Program-made: the position numbers and the translations under genes | Assembly (NCBI GenBank): GCA_964566225.1 | Contig: CAZMHV010000001.1 | Location: forward strand, 149,963-213,962 | Direction: 5' to 3' | Length of the DNA stretch: 64,000 nucleotides | DNA from: an uncultured Gammaproteobacteria bacterium | GTDB taxonomy: Bacteria > Patescibacteriota > Patescibacteriia > Magasanikbacterales > UBA922 | Notes under the pieces: generated by a model | The model's database searches: none | Told to the model about the DNA's origin: nothing | The model's input: the letters and a program-made list of their open reading frames with translations, nothing else | Part shown: piece after piece, positions 6,212-64,000 of the stretch | How positions within the stretch are numbered: position 1 is the stretch's first letter | How the letters are laid out: each line of letters begins with the position of its first letter

Positions 6212-8119
6212 ATGAACACTGAAGAAAAACAAGTCAACATCAATGACGAACGTGAAGTACGTTTACATAAAGTAGCCGAACTCCAAAAAATGGGGATTCC
6301 TTCGTTTCCGGCACAAGCAAATAAAAAAGATTCTTTGGCATTTGCGCTTGAAGCAGCCGAAGGAACTGCCATTCAAACTGCAGGCCGTATCATGACCAAA
6401 CGCGACATGGGCAAACTTATGTTTTGTCATTTGCAAGACGAAAGTACTCGCATGCAAATTGCCCTCAAAAAAGATGACCTCGGCGAAGAAAAATACAAAA
6501 CATTTTCCAAATTGATTGATGGTGGAGACATTGTAGAAATTACTGGAGAAAAATTTATTACCCACAAAGGTGAACCTTCAATTTTAGTGAGAGATTGGAA
6601 GCTCTTGACCAAAGCAGTACGACCATTGCCAGACAAATTTCATGGCGTCTCAGATGAAGAATTAAGATTGCGCAAACGTTATTTGGATTTGGTCATGAAT
6701 CCAGAACTTCGTGAGATGTTCCACAAAAAATCTAAATTTTGGGATGTGACACGCACATTCATGAAAGAACATGGATTTTTTGAAGTAGAAACTCCACTCC
6801 TCGAAACAACGACTGGTGGAGCAGAAGCCACACCATTTAAAACACATCACAATGATTTTGATCTTGATGTGTATTTGCGTATTTCTGTAGGTGAACTTTG
6901 GCAAAAACGTTTGATGGCCGGAGGCTTTGAAAAAACGTTTGAAATTGGCCGCGTATTCCGCAATGAAGGTTCAAGTCCAGACCACTTGCAAGAATTTACC
7001 AACATGGAATTTTACTGGGCCTATGCCAACTACAAAGATGGCATGAAGCTCGCTCAAGAACTCTATCAGCGTATTGCGCTTGAAGTATTTGGTAAAACCA
7101 AATTTACGAGTAAAGGCTATGAATATGATTTGGCAGGGGAGTGGCCAGAAGTAGACTATGTGGGTGAAATCAAAAAACAAACGGGTGTAGATATTTTGTC
7201 TGCGACTGAAGAAGAAATGAAAGCAAAGCTGAGTGAACTCAAAGTGGTATACGAAGGACAAAATCGTGAACGTCTCACTGACACACTCTGGAAATACTGC
7301 CGCAAAAATATTGCTGGTCCTGCATTTTTGGTGAACCATCCAAAATTGGTTTCGGCTCTTTCAAAAGCACACTCAGAGAATCCAGAACTCACGGAACGTT
7401 TTCAAATTATTATTGCAGGAAGTGAAGTGGGCAATGGTTACTCTGAGTTGAACGATCCAATTGATCAACGCGCCCGTTTTGAAGTCCAACAAAAACTTAT
7501 TGAACGTGGTGACAGTGAAGCCATGATGCCTGACTGGGAGTTTGTGGAAATGCTTGAACATGGAATGCCACCAACCTGTGGATTTGGTTTTGGTGAACGT
7601 TTATTTGCATTCCTCATGGATAAACCAATTCGTGAATGTGTGCTCTTTCCGCTCATGAAACCAGAAGAAGGACAAGAATCTACCGAAGGAAAATCCAAAA
7701 AAACCATGGTGGCACATGCGGTCTTGCTCAACACTCCAGAAGTTCCAACCTGGAGTAAACTCAATGCTGCCGCACATCTTTCGGCATCACTGGCTGCCCG
7801 TGAAGGACGTAAACTCATTCATATTGATCATGCCACAACAACCGATGGTGAGTCTATTCCCATGAATATTCAACACGCCATCATGATGAAAGAAACTGAC
7901 TCACGAACCGCTCTTTTGGAACTCAAACGCAAAGCCGATGAACTTGGACTCGTGGTAACCTGTTTTACCGAAGAAATGCGTGATTCCAGTAATGACGAAA
8001 AAGTAAAAGCCAAACAAGAAGGAAAAAGTGCAAATGATATTTCTTTTCTTGGTGTATTAGTATTTGGTGAAATGAAAGTGGTCGAAAAATTGACTGCACA
8101 ATTTAGTCTTGTAAGTTAA
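6212..8119 (+). CDS. lysS: Class II lysyl-tRNA synthetase with an extra C-terminal PTH2/DUF2000-like domain of about 140 aa
   Basis: OB-fold anticodon domain and class II motifs 1-3 (FRNEG, GFGFGERL) are present. After residue ~490 the tail aligns to the peptidyl-tRNA hydrolase PTH2 fold (MVAHAV...KLNAAAHLSA...LLELKRKADELGL...LGVLVFG...FSLVS). Confidence 0.88.
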   Translation: MNTEEKQVNINDEREVRLHKVAELQKMGIPSFPAQANKKDSLAFALEAAEGTAIQTAGRIMTKRDMGKLMFCHLQDESTRMQIALKKDDLGEEKYKTFSKLIDGGDIVEITGEKFITHKGEPSILVRDWKLLTKAVRPLPDKFHGVSDEELRLRKRYLDLVMNPELREMFHKKSKFWDVTRTFMKEHGFFEVETPLLETTTGGAEATPFKTHHNDFDLDVYLRISVGELWQKRLMAGGFEKTFEIGRVFRNEGSSPDHLQEFTNMEFYWAYANYKDGMKLAQELYQRIALEVFGKTKFTSKGYEYDLAGEWPEVDYVGEIKKQTGVDILSATEEEMKAKLSELKVVYEGQNRERLTDTLWKYCRKNIAGPAFLVNHPKLVSALSKAHSENPELTERFQIIIAGSEVGNGYSELNDPIDQRARFEVQQKLIERGDSEAMMPDWEFVEMLEHGMPPTCGFGFGERLFAFLMDKPIRECVLFPLMKPEEGQESTEGKSKKTMVAHAVLLNTPEVPTWSKLNAAAHLSASLAAREGRKLIHIDHATTTDGESIPMNIQHAIMMKETDSRTALLELKRKADELGLVVTCFTEEMRDSSNDEKVKAKQEGKSANDISFLGVLVFGEMKVVEKLTAQFSLVS

Positions 8120-39157: not shown

Positions 39158-42100
39158 TTACACTACAATACTCACTAATTTTCCTTTGACATAAATCACT
39201 TTTTGAGGAGTTTTGCCATCGAGAAATTTTTGAACATTTTCTTGTGCTATTGCTTGTGCTGTAATATCTTCTTCAGTAATATTTGCATCAACTTCGAGAC
39301 TGGCACGAACCTTGCCATTGACCTGCACCACAATCGTGAGTGTATCTGAGACGATTTTTGCAGCATCATGAGTTGGAAATGGTTGAATCGTTACAGAATC
39401 GGTGTGTCCTTGATTTGCCCACATTTCTTCGGCAATATGTGGTGCAAATGGTGCCAAAATTTTGATAAACAGTTCAAAGTGTTCCGGTGCAATAGTTTCT
39501 TCTTTGCTGAGCACGTTGACGAGTTCCATCATTTTGGCAATCGCTGTGTTATATTGCATATTTGATAGGTCTTCACCAACTTTTTTGACAGTGAGGTGAA
39601 CGGTTCGTTCGGCTTCGGATGAAGGTGCTGCTGATGCAGTCACTTTTTCTTGCAATTTCCACACACGATCAAAAAATCTGCGTACGCCTTTGACACTGTC
39701 CGTATTCCAAGGCTTGGTTTGCTCGAGTGGACCCATGAACATTTCATACACGCGCATGGTGTCTGCGCCGTATTCGTTGATCACATCCGTTGGATTGATC
39801 ACATTCCCCCATCGTTTACTCATTTTGCGATTGTCTTCGCCGAGAATAAGACCTTGGTGACGAGTTTTGGTAAATGGTTCGTCAAAGGTGATATAACCAG
39901 CATCGTACAAAACTTTGGTAAAGAAACGTGAGTAGAGCAAATGTCCATTCACATGTTCTTCTCCGCCAAGATAGAAATCTACTGGCATCCATGTTTTGAG
40001 AGCCTCAGGGGAAGCAAACGCACCATCATTTTTTGGATCAAGATAACGATAATAATACCATGATGAACACATGAATGTGTCGAGGGTGTCCGGTTCACGT
40101 TTCCAACCTTTGCCATATTTTTCTTCGACTCCTGCATTGAATGATTCAGCATACATGAGTGGAGATTGACCGGTTGGTTTGAAGTCGACGTCGTCGGGGA
40201 GGATGACCGGAAGGTCTGTTTCGGGAAGTGCTTTCAAATCCATGCGAACTGGCGCGAGAACTTCTTGCAATAATTGAGGGAATTCTACAAAACCATCTTG
40301 CGCACCAAAGTGCCCAGCATTGCGCATACGTGTAACACGTGCAAAAGGCAAATGCTGATTGAAAAATTGTTGGGTAGAAGCCAGATCAATGTATGGATCA
40401 GTAGTAGAAAGAATAACCACAACTTCACCTACATTTTCTTGCACTTTTTGGAAATCAACAGGAGTACTCATGAATGTTTTGAGCATCTCCCACATGTTGT
40501 CTCCATCACAAAAATTACGAATGTTGGTGTACCAAATATCTGTTGGCAAAGTCGGTGCAATGAGCACAAGCTTACGCAATTTGTGAGTCTCTGCTAATTT
40601 TAAAGCATTCCAACAACTGAGTGATCGTCCAATAACAATACTATTTCCATCTCCGACTACTGGTTCTGCAACAGCTTGCCATTTTTCAAAGACGGGTAAA
40701 TTTGCTTCGGGAAGTTCAGGCGTAGAAACGTTGATGTTTTTTGCTCTCAACTTTTCTCCAAGCCATGGATGAAAATGATCAGCAGGACTACTTCCCCATG
40801 CATGAAGTTGCAACACTGAACTTGGTGCCTGTTGGTATTGTTCCAATAATTCTGGCGAAACATTTTCAACATGAAGCATCGGAATCGGTGCACCCCAAAA
40901 ACGCTGGCGAGACACAGACCAGTCGCGGAGTTTGTATTGCACTTTGCGGGTGCCGATTTCACGTTGTTCGAGGTGTTCGATGATTTTCTTTTTGGCTTCT
41001 TCCACAGAAAGACCGTTCAAAAAATCTGAATTTGTGAGGTGACCAGATCCGGTGTGAGGTTGGTTGGTAATTTCCATATCGGGTCCTTTCACCACTTGAC
41101 GAATTGTTAAACCAAACTTCGTTGCAAACTCAAAATCCCGCTCATCATGCGCAGGCACAGCCATAATCGCACCGGTTCCGTAGGATGCAAACACATAATC
41201 TGCCATCCACACAGGAATCTCTTCACCTGAAACAGGATTTACAGCCTTGAGGCCCTTGAGTTCAACACCTGACTTTTCTTTTTGGGTTTGACGATCCATG
41301 TCTGTTTTCAATTTTGTTTCATCAATATATTTTTTTACTTCATCCCAATTCGTGATCAAAGATTGCAATTCGGGAACCAAAGCATGTTCTGGAGCAACCA
41401 CCAAATACGTTGCACCAAAAATAGTATCTGGGCGTGTGGTAAACACTCGAATATTTTTGGCAGTTTGCAAAACAGGAAAATCAACTTCTGCACCTTCACT
41501 TCGTCCAATCCAATTGCGCTGGCGCATTTTGGTTTCTTCGGGCCAGTCGATGCGATCAAGTCCTTCAAGAAGTTTGTCAGCGTAGTCAGTGATTTTTAAA
41601 TACCATTGTTCCATGGGGCGTTGCACCACAACCGTGTCACAGCGTTCACATTTTCCTTCACCAGTCACCTGTTCGTTGGCGAGCGCAGTTTTACAACTAT
41701 CACACCAATTTACATTTTGATTTTTGCGATATGCCAAACCTTGTTTGTACATGAGGAGAAAAAACCACTGTGTCCATTTGTAATAATCACTATTGTGACT
41801 CCCCACTTCTCTGTCCCAGTCAACTGAAATTCCGAGGCCTTTGATTTGACTCCGAAAGTTATCAATGGCAGCGTTAGTACTCACGCGTGGATGTACATTG
41901 GTTTTAATCGCATAATTTTCAGCAGGCAAACCAAAAGAATCCCAGCCAATCACCTGGAGCACCTTTTTGCCCATCATACGTTGATAGCGCGCATAAATGT
42001 CACACGCTGTGTACACTTCGGCATGACCCACGTGAAGACCGCTTCCTGAAGGGTATGGAAGCTGTGGGAGGATGTACATTTTATTTTCGGGAGTAACATT

Positions 42101-42181
42101 GGTGGGTGTCTTATACAGGTTTTGCTTTTCCCACTCTGCTTGCCACTTTGGTTCAATTTCTTTGGGGTTGTATTGATTCAT
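39158..42181 (-). CDS. leuS: Leucyl-tRNA synthetase carrying a ~215-aa inserted RBBP9/YdeN-type serine hydrolase domain
   Basis: HIGH (HVGHAE), CP1 editing motifs (TTRPDT, AHDERD) and KMSKS (KMSKR) are all present. Residues ~436-655 align to the PF06821 family (HFHPWLGEKL, GRSLS, TTDPYI, NAGHFGAQDGFVEFP). Confidence 0.9.
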   Translation of the reverse strand: MNQYNPKEIEPKWQAEWEKQNLYKTPTNVTPENKMYILPQLPYPSGSGLHVGHAEVYTACDIYARYQRMMGKKVLQVIGWDSFGLPAENYAIKTNVHPRVSTNAAIDNFRSQIKGLGISVDWDREVGSHNSDYYKWTQWFFLLMYKQGLAYRKNQNVNWCDSCKTALANEQVTGEGKCERCDTVVVQRPMEQWYLKITDYADKLLEGLDRIDWPEETKMRQRNWIGRSEGAEVDFPVLQTAKNIRVFTTRPDTIFGATYLVVAPEHALVPELQSLITNWDEVKKYIDETKLKTDMDRQTQKEKSGVELKGLKAVNPVSGEEIPVWMADYVFASYGTGAIMAVPAHDERDFEFATKFGLTIRQVVKGPDMEITNQPHTGSGHLTNSDFLNGLSVEEAKKKIIEHLEQREIGTRKVQYKLRDWSVSRQRFWGAPIPMLHVENVSPELLEQYQQAPSSVLQLHAWGSSPADHFHPWLGEKLRAKNINVSTPELPEANLPVFEKWQAVAEPVVGDGNSIVIGRSLSCWNALKLAETHKLRKLVLIAPTLPTDIWYTNIRNFCDGDNMWEMLKTFMSTPVDFQKVQENVGEVVVILSTTDPYIDLASTQQFFNQHLPFARVTRMRNAGHFGAQDGFVEFPQLLQEVLAPVRMDLKALPETDLPVILPDDVDFKPTGQSPLMYAESFNAGVEEKYGKGWKREPDTLDTFMCSSWYYYRYLDPKNDGAFASPEALKTWMPVDFYLGGEEHVNGHLLYSRFFTKVLYDAGYITFDEPFTKTRHQGLILGEDNRKMSKRWGNVINPTDVINEYGADTMRVYEMFMGPLEQTKPWNTDSVKGVRRFFDRVWKLQEKVTASAAPSSEAERTVHLTVKKVGEDLSNMQYNTAIAKMMELVNVLSKEETIAPEHFELFIKILAPFAPHIAEEMWANQGHTDSVTIQPFPTHDAAKIVSDTLTIVVQVNGKVRASLEVDANITEEDITAQAIAQENVQKFLDGKTPQKVIYVKGKLVSIVV

Positions 42182-58015: not shown

Positions 58016-58867
58016 TTAGGCGGCCGAGGCCACCTGCTCCTGATAGCCGAGCACCAGCGCGCTGAAGCGATCGTAGGCCAGGCGGCCCGCTTCGGTGACC
58101 TCGTCGTGCGAGAGCTCGGCGCCGGTGATGCCGGCCGCCATGTTGGTCATGAGCGACACACCGGCCACACGCAGACCACACCAGTTGGCCGCGATGGCCT
58201 CGGGCACGGTCGACATGCCCACGGCATCAGCCCCGAGGACGCGGAGCATCCGAATCTCGGCAGGGGTCTCGTAGTTGGGCCCCTTGAACGCGGCGTAAAC
58301 ACCCTGCTGGAGTTCCCCCACTCCACACTTGCTGGCCGCTTGCATGAGCATCAGCTCACCGTGACGGTACAGATTGCTCTGCCCGGGGAAACGCGGTCCG
58401 AGCTTGTTGTTGTTCGGCCCGACCAGGGGGTTCTCGCCCGTGAGGTTGAGGTGATCCACGATGGCCATGAGGTCACCACGCTTCCAATCCACCCGGATGC
58501 ACCCGGCGGCGTTGGTGAGCAGGATGTCGTTGACACCCATCTCCTTGGCCAAAAGCACCGACTGCACCACCTGCTGGGCCGTGTAGCCCTCGTTGAGGTG
58601 CAGACGACCCGCGAACGCGATGGTGGGCACGCCACTGAGCATACCCATGAACACCTTGCGGTCGTGGCCCTCGACCTCGGTGTTGATGAACGGCCACAGG
58701 GTGCGGAAGTCCACCACCAGCGCCCCCTGGTCGAACTTCTCGACCAGCTTGCCGAGGCCGCTCCCGAGCACGAGCGCGACCTTGGGGCCGGTCCAGCCAT
58801 TGGGCTTTTTCCAGGCCGCGAGACGGGGCAAGAGCACAGACATCACAGTCGAATCGAGTCGAAGCAT
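58016..58867 (-). CDS. Purine nucleoside phosphorylase / 5'-methylthioadenosine phosphorylase family (PNP family 2)
   Basis: VALVLGSGLG phosphate loop, MSTVPEA and NMAAG motifs. About 65% GC. The start is set at MLRLDS, preceded by AAGGAGAAG 7 nt upstream. Confidence 0.8.
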   Translation of the reverse strand: MLRLDSTVMSVLLPRLAAWKKPNGWTGPKVALVLGSGLGKLVEKFDQGALVVDFRTLWPFINTEVEGHDRKVFMGMLSGVPTIAFAGRLHLNEGYTAQQVVQSVLLAKEMGVNDILLTNAAGCIRVDWKRGDLMAIVDHLNLTGENPLVGPNNNKLGPRFPGQSNLYRHGELMLMQAASKCGVGELQQGVYAAFKGPNYETPAEIRMLRVLGADAVGMSTVPEAIAANWCGLRVAGVSLMTNMAAGITGAELSHDEVTEAGRLAYDRFSALVLGYQEQVASAA

Positions 58868-58925
58868 CGCAGCTTCTCCTTTGCGGTAAAGCCCAGTACA
58901 CATTGACTGGGACGGTTGTGGCCGG

Positions 58926-58954
58926 ATACTACCCTTTTTTAAAAAAATTTGCAA
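58926..58954 (-). promoter_or_regulatory. Sigma70-like promoter TTGCAA-N17-TAGTAT driving the GC-rich PNP gene
   Basis: Near-consensus -35/-10 hexamers with 17-nt spacing, upstream of the Shine-Dalgarno sequence and start. Confidence 0.5.
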
Positions 58955-58966
58955 GGGGCCAAGCAC

Positions 58967-59840: not shown

Positions 59841-60593
59841 TTAGAGAGCTTTACCCACCGCCCCCACATACGCACAAAAATCACAGTTCGCACTCGCCTT
59901 GGGCACACTTTTTTTATCAAGACATTTTTTGGCAGCGACAATTGCGTCCTCCACCCATGCGTCGTCGCCATCGTACGCAATGAGTGTAATATCAAATTCA
60001 AGTTTGGCGTCAAAGGCTTTTCGGTCGGTTTGACCATTGCAGTACACAAAGTATCCGGTGCTCGAAACTTTGTATCCATTGCAGCGAAGCAGCCACTGAT
60101 ACATTTCCATTTGGCGTTTGTATCCGTCTTGCCAGTCTTTGTTTAGCTCGGTAATTTCTTCACTCTTCGAAGTTGACTTGTAGTCCACCACAATATACTC
60201 GCCTTTTGAATTTTGCCACAAATCATCAATGGCACCAAACACCAAAAAATTGGTGGCCTCATGGAGATATTGAACACCGGTAAAATTGTGTCGCCACGCA
60301 TCCAAATTTTCATGCGCTACAGGCCGAGCATCCACACCATATTTTTTGATTAAAGGATGCGCATTGCCACTGGCGCGATGAATATCAAACTCAAGCTTGA
60401 GCAAATGATCAACCGCCGAATTGAGCGCAAACGGAAATCCAGGTGGCCGCCCTACGCCGAGGCGTCGATCGAGGTAGAAGCAACGTGGACAGTCGAGAAA
60501 GAGTTCAATTTTGGAGCGGGAGAGTTTGAAGGGGGTTTCTTGTTTAGGCGTGTAGAGGTTTTTGGTGCGGTGAGGGGTGTAGTACTCGGACAT
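59841..60593 (-). CDS. Cas4-like PD-(D/E)XK nuclease with probable Fe-S cluster cysteines (stand-alone, no CRISPR array)
   Basis: RecB-fold motifs (GAIDDL, VVDYKSTSK, QMEMYQWLL) plus Cys at the N terminus (CPRCFY) and C terminus (C...CDFCAY). Confidence 0.65.
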   Translation of the reverse strand: MSEYYTPHRTKNLYTPKQETPFKLSRSKIELFLDCPRCFYLDRRLGVGRPPGFPFALNSAVDHLLKLEFDIHRASGNAHPLIKKYGVDARPVAHENLDAWRHNFTGVQYLHEATNFLVFGAIDDLWQNSKGEYIVVDYKSTSKSEEITELNKDWQDGYKRQMEMYQWLLRCNGYKVSSTGYFVYCNGQTDRKAFDAKLEFDITLIAYDGDDAWVEDAIVAAKKCLDKKSVPKASANCDFCAYVGAVGKAL

Positions 60594-60607: not shown

Positions 60608-60994
60608 CTACAAAATATCTTTATACTCAGGATAATTTTCTCGAATAATATTTTTCCAAATAGAAGTTTCATTCCCTCCAGCAATATCATTTTTATGATA
60701 TACCAAAAGCACATGCACCCTGCCACTTTCTTTGTACACTGCCACAATACATCGATTCCCCGAAGCATGACGAGAAACATTTGTCCCCGCAATTTTAAAT
60801 TCTGTTTTGCAAATTTGGATTTCACCAGCTTCAACAATAACCTCTGCCACACTTTTTTGAAATAACAAATCAATTTGCTCAAACTCTTTTTGCAAAAGTG
60901 TCAAAGTAAAATCCCAAGCAGTTTTATATTTTTTGGCAAAAGTTTTTATGAAATGCCTCTCGGCATAATTTTCAAAAACAACTTCATAACCCAT
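60608..60994 (-). CDS. Putative toxin, RelE/ParE-fold-like, cognate to the Panacea-domain antitoxin
   Basis: The C-terminal beta-strands (RCIVAVYKESGRVHVLLVYHKND) resemble the RelE/ParE core, and the gene lies 3 nt downstream of the antitoxin gene. Confidence 0.45.
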   Translation of the reverse strand: MGYEVVFENYAERHFIKTFAKKYKTAWDFTLTLLQKEFEQIDLLFQKSVAEVIVEAGEIQICKTEFKIAGTNVSRHASGNRCIVAVYKESGRVHVLLVYHKNDIAGGNETSIWKNIIRENYPEYKDIL

Positions 60995-60996
60995 AG

Positions 60997-61671
60997 TTAA
61001 AAAATCTCATCAGGATCCTCCTGAGTAAACAGACCATACGAGACTATCTCATTTTCTTTGGCATACAAATATGGAAACTGTTTATGGGTAAAATCAACAA
61101 TTTCAGACGTTTTTTTATTTTTCCATTTTTTTTCAATTTTTTGAATCAACTTTTTTTCTTCGTTATTTAAAAGAGACAAATCAACTTTTGCGCCACTTCG
61201 CGACTGCGAAATCATCATGGCTCCATCTCGAGTTTGGGTAATATTAATTTCACCATTTTCAAACATTTCATCAACCAGTCGAAAATACACCTCTGAAACG
61301 GGGCCGTAGGGCAGCTTGCGATACTGCATTCCGCTCATGCTTTCGAGATGAAAGTAGAACCACCCAAAATCTGCAAAATACAAAAGCTTGGCAAGTTTTG
61401 TTTTGGTAATTTCCCCATCCAAACGCAAAAAAGCCAATATCATTTGTCTGTATTTTTCATAATTTGGGATATCTCCGTTTTCAAGCTCCTGCAATGAAAT
61501 GCCAAAAAGATTCGAAAGCTTTTGCGCTTCAGAAAGAGTGAGCTCTTTTTTGCCTTGTTCGAGAGCAATATAGGAAGGACGAGAAATACCAAGCCGAGTG
61601 GCAATTTCTGCTTGGGAAATATTGGCCTTGAGACGGAGGTCTTTTAATTTTATGCGTGTGGGTTGATTCAT
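60997..61671 (-). CDS. HTH-XRE plus Panacea (DUF4065/SocA-like) domain antitoxin (PanA-type)
   Basis: N-terminal XRE HTH (LRLKANISQAEIATRLGISRPSYIALEQG) and C-terminal KLAKLLYFADFGWFYFHLESMSGMQYRKLPYGPV, typical of PF13274. Confidence 0.7.
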   Translation of the reverse strand: MNQPTRIKLKDLRLKANISQAEIATRLGISRPSYIALEQGKKELTLSEAQKLSNLFGISLQELENGDIPNYEKYRQMILAFLRLDGEITKTKLAKLLYFADFGWFYFHLESMSGMQYRKLPYGPVSEVYFRLVDEMFENGEINITQTRDGAMMISQSRSGAKVDLSLLNNEEKKLIQKIEKKWKNKKTSEIVDFTHKQFPYLYAKENEIVSYGLFTQEDPDEIF

Positions 61672-61750
61672 ATGTATTTATACTACAAAATTTGTGTTAA
61701 GATGTCAAACATTGGGTGTTAGGATATTTGACACCCATGTCTTAAAACCA

Positions 61751-62014
61751 CTATGAATTAGATTTTTTCATAGCTTTTATTGACCAAACTATAGATCTGA
61801 CAAACTGAACAAAAAAATACGGTAATAATATAAATAGGTATACTCCTTCCTCTCGATCGAAAATTGCTATAAAAAATCTTTTATATATCTTTGAAAAAGT
61901 GTGCTCGTCAGCTATGAATAAATTTATAATTACAGGAAGTATTAACAAACCAAATAATACGGATAAAATTAAAATAATCCACTCTTTTGCAAATATTTTT
62001 TTTTCAAACTTCAT
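61751..62014 (-). CDS. Small hypothetical membrane protein (2 TM)
   Basis: ORF with two hydrophobic helices in the accessory island. Confidence 0.35.
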   Translation of the reverse strand: MKFEKKIFAKEWIILILSVLFGLLILPVIINLFIADEHTFSKIYKRFFIAIFDREEGVYLFILLPYFFVQFVRSIVWSIKAMKKSNS

Positions 62015-62051: not shown

Positions 62052-62507
62052 CTAAAAATTCCATTCAATTTTTTCAATCTTTAAAGTCCAAACTCGAAAT
62101 TCAATTTTTTGATTATCAATCAATGTACTTTCCCCTTGACCTAATATTATATATTTTGAATCATACTCATCAGTCAACCAAACTCTTAAATTAAATTCTC
62201 CACTGGATGGTATATTCCCATCAACAGGTAACCAATAAAATGATGCATCCAAACTCCCTGCGGGTATTAGTCGTCCTTTTTTAAAAAATTTAGTTACATT
62301 GCCTATCTCAAAACCGTGAATATATAAATTAATTTTTCCAGTATTTAAGACTTTAATTTTATTTTCCATAGGCAAAAAAGAAGCTGCAACAAAATCATTT
62401 AACTTCTTTAAACGTCTATTAATTAAAATTTGCCATACCGCAAATATACAAGCAGCGATTCCGGTAATACCCTGAATCCCTAACGAATATATTTCATACT
62501 GTGTCAT
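62052..62507 (-). CDS. Hypothetical membrane-anchored protein translationally coupled to the DUF2075 ATPase
   Basis: ATGA start/stop overlap with the upstream gene; an N-terminal TM then a beta-rich ~110-aa domain. Confidence 0.5.
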   Translation of the reverse strand: MTQYEIYSLGIQGITGIAACIFAVWQILINRRLKKLNDFVAASFLPMENKIKVLNTGKINLYIHGFEIGNVTKFFKKGRLIPAGSLDASFYWLPVDGNIPSSGEFNLRVWLTDEYDSKYIILGQGESTLIDNQKIEFRVWTLKIEKIEWNF

Positions 62508-64000
62508 ATACTAGTTTTTACTGATTTATTTTTAAACCACTCCCTCGCCTCATCATCCACAAAATACACATAACACCCCTTCATCCCTCGTGTCATCAAT
62601 GTACGATATGTATTTTTTATAATCCTATCCGCGGTCTTCATTGCACTTTCAGGATCCTTTTTATATTGAGTTTTAAAACCTTGTAAAGATTTATCTGTTT
62701 TAGCACGCTTAAACGGATCGGTCACAATTTTTCCATTTCGTACGGTTAAATCTGGTCCAACGATAACTCCAACATAGTCCATTTCAAGCCCCTGACAAGT
62801 ATGAATGCAGCCAACTTCATTGACTGATTTTGACGCCATGATCCACAAATTTCCATCACTTGCCAAATTCCATTTCATACCAAAATTTTTTTCAGGAATT
62901 TGAATATCCGCAACTTCAGGATTTTTTTTGCTTACCCAGTTCCAACAGTATCCAGCGACAAGACGTGCTTTATTTGCAAGTTTATTTTTCTCAAAAATAA
63001 TATCTCGAAGAATATTTGGATCATCAATAACTTGAAAATCATACTCAATATCTTTCAAATCAGTATTTGCCGTTTCATGAATTTGCAAAGCATTATCGAG
63101 CCATGCTAAGTAACCATCTGATCCATTACATCGAAATTGTGAACTGAGTTGTAATGTATGAACATTGGCTCTTTCAAATCCCGCCCACATTTTAATTTCT
63201 CCTATTTCTCCGATGTCACTCATGGTGACTTTTTGGTCTTCATCTATAAAAAATACAGAAAATTTTGAAGCTTGAATAATTTCTTTAATCTGATTTTCTC
63301 CAAGATGTTTAAACATTCCTGATTTTTCATTAAGTCGATGTGCTTCATCTACGATAAGTGCATCAAAAAAGTTATTTTCAACATCAATAAAAGCACCTGA
63401 CCCTGTAAAAAAATGAGAAAACTCTGTTCTTTTCATCTGCCCTGTCAGTTTACTCTCATAAACAGCACGTGGAGCTGCATTTTTTGTAACATACTTTGCA
63501 AGTAAATTATATTTTTTTGTCAGCTCTACAAGCAAGTTTACTGCCACTACAGTTTTGCCTGTTCCAGGACCTCCTTCAATAATTAAAACATTCTTATTAT
63601 TTTCAGAAGATTGTCTCGCAAGATTTAGTGCTGTTTCATATACTACTTTTTGATCATCAATCATGATAAACTCTTTGTTCCCTTTCAATAACTTTCCAAG
63701 ACTATCAGCCAAACTTTTTGAAGGTCGAATTTTTCCATTTTCAATTCGATACATTATTTTATTTTTATCACCTTGTTTTACAAATCGTTTAATGAATGCT
63801 TGCAATTTTTTTGCATCTCCACGAAAAAAAGCTGGCGCTTTCTGCAAGTATTCTGAATAAAAATCATTATCAATAACATTATCCTGTAAATAATTATGCA
63901 AATAAGCACACGGTTGTAATAGAATATTTTCTTGATAAACAGTTTCATTAAAACTTTGTAACAACGATGTATACGACCAAGCTTGATATGATGGATGACT
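62504..64000 (-). CDS. DUF2075 domain ATPase (AAA/helicase-like), 5'-partial; N terminus lies beyond the window
   Basis: The frame stays open to the window edge. Walker A GGPGTGKT, Walker B LIVDEAHRL, and a PF09848-typical C-terminal region (YRTLMTRGMKGCYVYFVD). Confidence 0.8.
   Translation of the reverse strand, partial: SHPSYQAWSYTSLLQSFNETVYQENILLQPCAYLHNYLQDNVIDNDFYSEYLQKAPAFFRGDAKKLQAFIKRFVKQGDKNKIMYRIENGKIRPSKSLADSLGKLLKGNKEFIMIDDQKVVYETALNLARQSSENNKNVLIIEGGPGTGKTVVAVNLLVELTKKYNLLAKYVTKNAAPRAVYESKLTGQMKRTEFSHFFTGSGAFIDVENNFFDALIVDEAHRLNEKSGMFKHLGENQIKEIIQASKFSVFFIDEDQKVTMSDIGEIGEIKMWAGFERANVHTLQLSSQFRCNGSDGYLAWLDNALQIHETANTDLKDIEYDFQVIDDPNILRDIIFEKNKLANKARLVAGYCWNWVSKKNPEVADIQIPEKNFGMKWNLASDGNLWIMASKSVNEVGCIHTCQGLEMDYVGVIVGPDLTVRNGKIVTDPFKRAKTDKSLQGFKTQYKKDPESAMKTADRIIKNTYRTLMTRGMKGCYVYFVDDEAREWFKNKSVKTSI

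Follow-up and report, generated by a model that had tools for sequence, protein, structure and literature searches.

A probable PanAT-type toxin-antitoxin operon with a HigB2/RelE-like toxin in Patescibacteria

The stretch of DNA analysed here (64,000 nucleotides of assembly GCA_964566225.1, contig CAZMHV010000001.1, positions 149,963 to 213,962; hereafter the window) is deposited as an uncultured Gammaproteobacteria bacterium and placed by GTDB in the Patescibacteriota. It carries on its minus strand two adjacent genes that probably form a type II toxin-antitoxin (TA) operon of the PanAT kind with a HigB2/RelE-like PanT. The first gene, panA (60997-61671, stop codon included), is an open reading frame (ORF) for a predicted antitoxin and repressor of 224 amino acids, in which Pfam identifies a helix-turn-helix (HTH) and a Panacea domain. 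The second, panT (60608-60994), encodes a predicted toxin of 128 amino acids, to which AlphaFold, Foldseek and hhalign assign a HigB2/RelE-like fold. An earlier note on this DNA had proposed the pair as a candidate TA system, and both its ORFs and the peptides it quoted, KLAKLLYFADFGWFYFHLESMSGMQYRKLPYGPV (PanA residues 92-125) and RCIVAVYKESGRVHVLLVYHKND (PanT residues 81-103), are present as described. The note was also right that panT directly follows panA, but the gap is shorter than the 3 nucleotides it gave: the panA TAA stop (60997-60999) is separated from the panT ATG at 60994 by a 2-nucleotide spacer, CT (60995-60996), an arrangement suggestive of translational coupling.

The pairing of the two genes was examined in the best 80 loci retrieved when a single genome per species was scanned. 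In 79 of these loci tblastn places a PanA homologue, 48-74% identical, directly upstream of panT on the same strand, and at the sole unpaired locus the toxin begins at the first base of its contig. The pairing of panT with an HTH-Panacea gene is far beyond chance and essentially obligatory. In three unrelated genomic contexts the upstream neighbour is a protein of 224-231 amino acids with HTH_3 and SocA_Panacea domains; the SocA_Panacea domain was found in the partner at every locus examined, and a PanT branch of about 37% identity has the same HTH-Panacea partner with a 17-nucleotide overlap. When flanking ORFs are clustered, panA and panT alone are common to the loci, the next commonest neighbour being present in 7 of 81. 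Measured at 77 loci, the interval between the panA stop and the panT start is -14 nucleotides in 27, -11 in 32, +2 in 14 (the window included), +3 in three and +6 in one. At every junction the genes thus overlap or stand no more than 6 nucleotides apart, which makes translational coupling a conserved feature of the cassette. Kurata et al. 2022 (PMC8832971) defined conserved PanAT systems as two-gene loci with a gap of at most 100 nucleotides, found in at least two species and not part of a longer conserved operon; the window cassette family, with 79 of 80 loci paired and junctions from -14 to +6, is of this type.

Two further features of the gene arrangement were observed. A hairpin (TCAGGA-GGA-TCCTGA followed by a T-run) lies at 61010-61024 on the minus strand, within the 3' end of panA and 15-30 nucleotides ahead of the panT ATG. 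It includes an AGGAGG motif and could gate panT translation; comparable hairpins occur at chance frequency in the region. In a divergent branch of the family (P0147/P0520; loci L092-L103, for example L092:1801-4401), a gene for 499 amino acids overlaps the 3' end of panT by 4 nucleotides in all copies. Its product has no Pfam match, and the overlap suggests a three-gene variant of the module.

The structural model of PanT points to the RelE/ParE superfamily. The AlphaFold2 model, built from a 30-sequence alignment, has a predicted local confidence (pLDDT) of 91.7 and a predicted template-modelling score (pTM) of 0.86, and consists of a strand (residues 4-7), two helices (9-39 and 41-46), four strands (50-56, 59-66, 80-87 and 92-100) and a C-terminal helix (109-120), in the order b-a-a-b-b-b-b-a. 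The elements that define the superfamily fold, namely an N-terminal strand, two helices and an antiparallel sheet of three to four strands, are all present. In a Foldseek search of the PDB, the top 29 matches of the model are all RelE/ParE-superfamily toxins, with low-probability noise below them. The best match is an archaeal RelE (1WMI, aRelE of P. horikoshii; E 1.2e-3, target-normalised TM score 0.72), and V. cholerae HigB2 structures occupy ranks 2 and 4-9; the other top matches include RelE of T. thermophilus and E. coli, HigB of E. coli and Shigella, PfiT, RelE1/2 and ParE2 of M. tuberculosis, and Cami1. These results bear out the RelE/ParE-like appearance that had been suspected from the C-terminal strands, and homology to a non-toxin family, which the note had named as grounds for rejecting its proposal, was not found: the matches are to RelE/ParE toxins. 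The protein is indeed longer than a typical RelE, as had been remarked, but the extra length is not a plain N-terminal extension. Four parts of the model share it: the long first helix (9-39), an additional strand at residues 50-56, a 12-residue loop that is conserved (69-80) and the C-terminal helix (109-120).

Within this superfamily, profile comparison favours HigB2 as the closest relative. When the PanT family profile is aligned by hhalign with V. cholerae HigB2 (the sequence used is identical to PDB 5JA9_C, and HigB2 itself belongs to Pfam PF06296), the probability is 79.2%, with an E-value of 1.6e-5 over 62 columns. The alignment pairs PanT R81 with HigB2 R64, Y99 with Y82, K101 with K84 and K63 with K49, and places the PanT loop 69-80 on the Gly/Lys-rich loop between strands b2 and b3 of HigB2. 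HigB2 is a ribosome-dependent mRNase in which alanine substitutions at R51, R64, Y82 and K84 lower the activity 170-, 350-, 1200- and 3000-fold, respectively (Hadzi et al., PMC5416850). Three residues of this catalytic set of four have counterparts that are 98-99% conserved in the PanT family: among 224 full-length members the conservation is 0.99 for R81, 0.98 for Y99 and 0.99 for K101, and it is likewise 0.99 for K63. S74 and E109 are equally conserved (0.98 each), and K, H or R occupies position 76 in nearly all members. These residues lie in or near a putative active-site segment, delimited by conservation and hhalign to PanT residues 63-101 (60692-60808, minus strand), which comprises K63, the loop AGTxxSx(K/H)xSGN, R81, Y99 and K101. 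Judged from its fold and conserved residues, PanT most likely works like HigB2 and RelE.

The fold is common to two activities (PMC10440598), and PanT could in principle be a ParE-type poison of DNA gyrase that shares only the fold with the RelE-type RNases. ParE-like PanTs do exist, and PfiT (9w3a) and ParE2 of M. tuberculosis (8c26) are among the Foldseek matches. However, the proteins that match best in structure and profile are RNases (aRelE, HigB2, and RelE of T. thermophilus and E. coli), the most conserved residues of PanT coincide with the catalytic Arg, Tyr and Lys of HigB2, and none of 50 diverse PanT members has a match to the Pfam family ParE_toxin. We therefore consider a gyrase poison very unlikely.

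A closer comparison of PanT with HigB2 (PF06296; PDB 5JA8, 5JA9 and 8A0X) reveals likenesses in fold, profile and the Arg-Tyr-Lys set, and both proteins contain a Gly/Ser/Lys-rich loop ahead of the strand bearing the catalytic Arg, as well as a C-terminal helix. PanT differs in falling below the PF06296 threshold and in having a longer first helix and an extra strand. In addition, its loop is strongly conserved (S74, K/H76, S78, G79 and N80), whereas that of HigB2 is merely basic and disordered, and its Glu109 has no assigned counterpart in HigB2. These features might be new within the RelE fold (S74-x-(K/H)76-x-S78-G79-N80 together with Glu109) and might signify that PanT acts by another chemistry or on another target (rRNA or tRNA, for instance, or by cleavage independent of the ribosome), with Panacea as the sensor of the trigger. 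In that case the cassette would serve as a growth switch or a module of defence spread over the lineages of the ultra-small Patescibacteria, and would be the first that is experimentally tractable; we hold this larger proposal to be rather improbable.

The partner proteins, in contrast, set the two systems apart. HigA2 has a disordered N-terminus and a C-terminal HTH and is encoded after the toxin, whereas PanA has an N-terminal HTH followed by Panacea, is encoded before the toxin and is unrelated to HigA2. The antitoxin-first order and the bicistronic operon, with an autoregulation that is predicted in the window, are reminiscent of relBE. Yet RelB is a ribbon-helix-helix protein and PanA an HTH-Panacea protein, and the catalytic Tyr87 of RelE is on the C-terminal helix, while the conserved Tyr of PanT is on the last strand, as in HigB2. 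The commonest annotated PanT of Kurata et al., MqsR, offers another parallel, since there too an RNase of the RelE superfamily is paired with an HTH-bearing Panacea antitoxin; the PanAs paired with MqsR carry a neutralising zinc-binding domain, and Pfam finds none in PanA here. As for the toxin itself, an MqsR-type PanT was considered and rejected: it has no match to the Pfam family MqsR_toxin, and no MqsR structure is among the top Foldseek matches.

Several observations weigh against a HigB2/RelE-like toxin. The window PanT has nothing significant in Pfam, NCBIfam, PADLOC or PHROGs, and neither phmmer nor the family profile matches any PDB sequence. Of the 50 diverse members, 49 are without a Pfam match, and one touches PF06296 ('RelE') at a sub-threshold E-value of 0.014; PF06296 is the sole Pfam family touched by any of them, and no significant match to a Pfam family of the RelE/ParE clan was obtained. 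The sequence link to RelE and HigB2 is modest, the probability of 79% being against a single HigB2 sequence and under the usual confidence level of 90-95%. The RelE subfamily was rejected as the closest relative in sequence, as hhalign against an E. coli RelE alignment gives 0.67%, which is not significant and leaves HigB2 favoured. HigB2 R51 has no conserved counterpart in PanT, K67 being K or R in about half of the divergent members. PanT identity is 55-77% over many lineages, which is unusually high for a toxin and could mean a less disposable role. The window PanT has an isoelectric point (pI) of 6.9 and is not basic, and Kurata et al. (PMC8832971) found eight of their tested PanTs to be non-toxic in E. 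coli.

The unusual conservation, the near-neutral charge of the window protein and the predicted PanTs that proved harmless in E. coli would also fit a protein of RelE fold that is no toxin, for instance a domesticated partner of the HTH-Panacea protein that binds RNA or has a regulatory part as co-repressor. We regard this as unlikely because the distribution of the family has the marks of mobile TA modules. It is patchy, relatives occurring in 130 species of the 185,579 representatives scanned (one genome per species; the count is bounded by the search patterns used), and its genomic contexts are varied, with two copies on separate contigs of one Paceibacterota metagenome-assembled genome (MAG; assembly DATDSR01, loci L020 and L080). 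At another locus (L013:3986-4381) the panT homologue is interrupted by one in-frame TAA, at codon 49, beside an intact panA. This toxin copy appears to be inactivated, the pattern expected for toxin inactivation and again typical of mobile TA modules. Finally, residues of catalytic type are kept at 98-99%.

The antitoxin half of the cassette is readily recognised. In PanA, Pfam finds an XRE-type HTH (HTH_3) at residues 9-63 (61483-61647, minus strand; E 2.5e-14, above the gathering score) and a Panacea domain (SocA-like, DUF4065; PF13274) at residues 93-198 (61078-61395, minus strand; E 9.9e-15), the latter scoring 55.9 bits against a gathering score of 25.7. The earlier note had described precisely this architecture, an XRE-type HTH with a C-terminal Panacea domain, and had suggested a PF13274 search as the check, which the protein passes clearly. 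Close homologues bear the names 'SocA domain-containing antitoxin' or 'DUF4065 domain-containing protein' in public sources. Across 76 sequences PanA is conserved over its entire length, the Panacea core and the C-terminal tail included: the core motif TKLAKLLYFADFxWFY...SMSGMxYRK..YGPV shows little or no variation, and the tail retains the pattern F194-T195-H196-x-Q198-x-P200 ... Q217-E-D/N-P220.

This tail (residues 199-224; 61000-61077, minus strand) has a calculated pI of 4.05. It is acidic and conserved and, on the model of the segments through which RelB and HigA2 bind their toxins, is a candidate toxin-binding element. Previous work provides two precedents for neutralisation by PanAs. 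Standalone Panacea neutralises toxins directly, whereas in multidomain PanAs a Phd-C, PAD1 or zinc-binding domain neutralises and Panacea may be a sensor (Ernits et al. 2023, PMC10440598). The AlphaFold model of the PanA monomer has an overall pLDDT of 64.8, with residues 11-50 of the HTH alone at 83-92 and values below 50 at residues 100-125 and 190-224; the model is firm for the HTH only and hence says nothing firm on which element binds the toxin. A mirror-tree comparison of PanT distances with those of each PanA region gives r of 0.46-0.56 throughout and does not discriminate between the regions.

Because the Panacea domain was first known from SocA, and PanA has a weak match to the NCBIfam model SocA_antitoxin, a type VI mode of action is conceivable, in which PanA hands the toxin to a protease rather than inhibiting it directly. 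Of all the explanations considered, this one appears the least likely. The SocA_antitoxin match reaches 17.3 bits where the cut-off is 190, PanT has no relation to SocB, each of the nine validated PanAT pairs acts as a type II complex (PMC8832971), and the arrangement of HTH and operator is the usual one for type II autoregulation. Membership of SocAB proper was rejected on the same score (NF047745) and on the RelE-like fold of PanT, which is not that of SocB.

The region upstream of panA contains a promoter and a putative PanA operator (61680-61737, minus strand), recognised from a promoter match, inverted repeats and recurrence across loci. The best promoter match in the region consists of a -35 box TTGACA (61708-61703), a 17-nucleotide spacer and a -10 box TAGTAT (61685-61680), with 10 of 12 positions matching, and the -10 box ends 8 nucleotides ahead of the panA ATG. 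Two interdigitated inverted repeats, 61733-61724/61712-61703 and 61737-61731/61719-61713, are present in the same segment. This layout recurs. In 66 of the 77 loci a sigma-70-like promoter ends 6-9 nucleotides before the panA ATG, in 40 of them exactly 6 nucleotides before it, and a Shine-Dalgarno-like motif precedes panA in only two. A TGTCA-N7-nnACA dyad is found in 44 of 77 loci, as against a mean of 0.4 in shuffled sequences, and starts at -58 to -63 in 42 of the 44; a second site, overlapping the -35 box, is found in 51 of 77 loci versus 1.1 in shuffles. PanAs with a different recognition helix are accompanied by different half-sites, for example SRSTY(L/V)xIEKGTK with TGTACA-type sites. 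Such a layout is consistent with an HTH that represses its own operon and with a bicistronic mRNA that is leaderless or nearly so, with PanA as the presumed ligand of the operator. Over the whole window a Shine-Dalgarno-like motif lies upstream of only one of 27 long ORFs, so the lack of one before panA is not special, and stronger evidence comes from where the -10 box lies. Shine-Dalgarno pairing seems to play little part in translation initiation in this host.

Gene structure, domains, fold, strict pairing, conserved residues and the promoter/operator layout are seen directly, and from these we infer DNA binding, a PanA-PanT complex, toxicity, RNase activity and a trigger in the following way. 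The two genes would be cotranscribed from the sigma-70-like promoter. Their mRNA would be leaderless or nearly so, since the -10 box lies only 8 nucleotides before the panA ATG, and panT would be translated by coupling to panA, since its ATG lies 2 nucleotides past the panA stop. The N-terminal XRE HTH of PanA would bind the TGTCA/TGACA-type half-sites that flank and overlap the -35 box and so repress the operon. By analogy with the tested PanAT pairs, the Panacea domain, the acidic C-terminal tail or both would bind PanT and keep it inactive. Freed PanT, in general a basic protein of about 130 amino acids with the RelE/HigB2 fold, would most likely enter the ribosomal A site and cleave mRNA under translation, with K63, R81, Y99 and K101 as predicted catalytic residues in the places of HigB2 K49, R64, Y82 and K84. 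Cleavage would bring protein synthesis and growth to a stop.

PanA and PanT were defined by Kurata et al. 2022 (PMC8832971), who showed nine pairs to be complex-forming type II systems, listed 343 PanAs with HTH N-termini and grouped the toxins into 88 clusters, MqsR-, ParE- and RelE-like ones included. One of these, cluster T14 of their Dataset S1, comprises 16 RefSeq loci, all antitoxin-first, in which every toxin is called 'hypothetical protein'; it was neither tested nor discussed. Its hosts are two Saccharibacteria (HTH-PanA, junction -11), one Cryosericota, three Methanobacteria and ten Bacteroidetes (HTH-PanA; junctions +2 in five loci, -4 in three, and +6 and +32), and the top HHpred match of its representative is HigB-2 at 99.73% (PMC8832971). 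T14 resembles the window family in having an HTH-PanA first, an overlap or very short gap and a hypothetical toxin with remote homology to RelE and HigB-2, and the two have the same junction classes and overlapping hosts. On these likenesses in architecture, junctions, hosts and remote homology, taken from the description in the catalogue, our PanT family can with good probability be equated with T14. The note's term 'uncharacterised PanT toxin' is thus apt, yet the toxin had probably already been catalogued within the untested T14 and so is probably not unknown. In every respect that sequence analysis and modelling can check, the note's proposal is upheld. The window pair appears to be a real PanAT, probably catalogued computationally before, whose HigB2/RelE-like toxin is predicted from sequence and structural modelling.

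Compared with the 16 RefSeq loci of T14, the family described here is far larger, with at least 950 clusters at 90% identity (word-indexed search, E <= 0.01), and is concentrated in Patescibacteria MAGs, which the RefSeq-based survey of Kurata et al. hardly sampled. The best 120 PanT homologues are 63-98% identical, 127-154 amino acids long and without any Pfam domain, and the named hosts among the best homologues are Patescibacteria MAGs. An exhaustive profile search of 1.84 billion representatives at E <= 1e-3 retrieves only 209 clusters at 50% identity, nearly all of about 125-150 amino acids, and we conclude from these sequence searches that the family is real, compact and well conserved. 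By label, the best 80 panT loci come from candidate phyla radiation (CPR)/Patescibacteria genomes in 60 cases, from genomes called 'bacterium' alone in 13 and from others in seven. The median pI of the family is 9.06. Full-text literature searches found no paper on Panacea or the PanT family in Patescibacteria.

The neighbourhood of the cassette raises the question of its biological role. Just upstream, at 62504-64000 on the minus strand, is a gene for a Schlafen-group-3/DUF2075 helicase (623 amino acids at full length, judging from locus L090), which PADLOC matches weakly to PDC-S41, Nhi and AbiO. It is followed by ORFs at 62052-62507 (151 amino acids) and 61751-62014 (87 amino acids), for which no matches were found. 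On the other side, a gene for a Cas4-like PD-(D/E)XK nuclease (59841-60593, minus strand) starts 14 nucleotides past the panT stop. A helicase homologue is also located upstream of the cassette at three other loci (L061, L072 and L073) and downstream of it at a fourth (L068), and this proximity may reflect an association with defence islands. Homologues of the nuclease, however, are present in only 3 of 81 loci and do not adjoin the cassette elsewhere; the nuclease is probably not part of the module.

These neighbours, the helicase just upstream of the cassette in the window and at the three other loci and the nuclease behind it, would suit a role in abortive infection instead of plasmid-style addiction or a response to stress: Panacea would sense phage infection and free or activate the HigB2-like toxin. 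Such a role is compatible with the mechanism outlined above. Ernits et al. 2023 (PMC10440598) favour a sensory Panacea where other elements neutralise, and link the TA network to defence systems. Nevertheless, PanA and PanT have no convincing PADLOC match to a defence system, of 81 loci only about 5 have the helicase as a neighbour and 3 the nuclease, and many copies of the cassette are situated amid housekeeping genes. Neither is there a trace of the toxin in phages: no match to PanT emerged when 50,697 phage records were searched by tblastn, and a Foldseek search of viral structures (BFVD) with the model returned nothing meaningful. An anti-phage role therefore remains tentative and, on this evidence, doubtful. 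Growth control by a HigB2/RelE-like toxin of the PanAT kind, for whatever purpose, is the explanation that we prefer.

If confirmed, this explanation would add to the PanAT catalogue a large toxin family that lacks a Pfam model and is found mostly in uncultured Patescibacteria. The gain is incremental, since the pairing of Panacea with many toxins, RelE/ParE-like ones included, is already established (PMC8832971). A modest additional interest comes from how large the family is and how far it is concentrated in uncultured Patescibacteria, from its unusually strong conservation, from the conserved loop and the conserved Glu without assigned HigB2 counterparts, and from the clean conserved operator. 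The catalytic candidates K63, R81, Y99, K101 and E109 and the operator at 61680-61737 provide concrete points for testing. Of particular interest is that the pair offers a clean case for a question posed by Ernits et al. 2023, namely whether, in an HTH-PanA without a dedicated neutralising domain, Panacea itself or the acidic tail neutralises a RelE-type toxin.

Other genes in the window that showed unusual features include a PNP_UDP_1 phosphorylase (58016-58966, minus strand; E 2.9e-42), which is contained in a 1-kb block of 62% GC, as against about 39% for the window; this block has the look of foreign DNA taken up recently, or of a chimeric assembly. The leucyl-tRNA synthetase (1007 amino acids; 39158-42181, minus strand) has an apparent insertion of a Ser_hydrolase domain (PF06821) at residues 458-638, and a class II aminoacyl-tRNA synthetase (tRNA-synt_2; 6212-8119, plus strand) is fused to a C-terminal DUF2000 domain.

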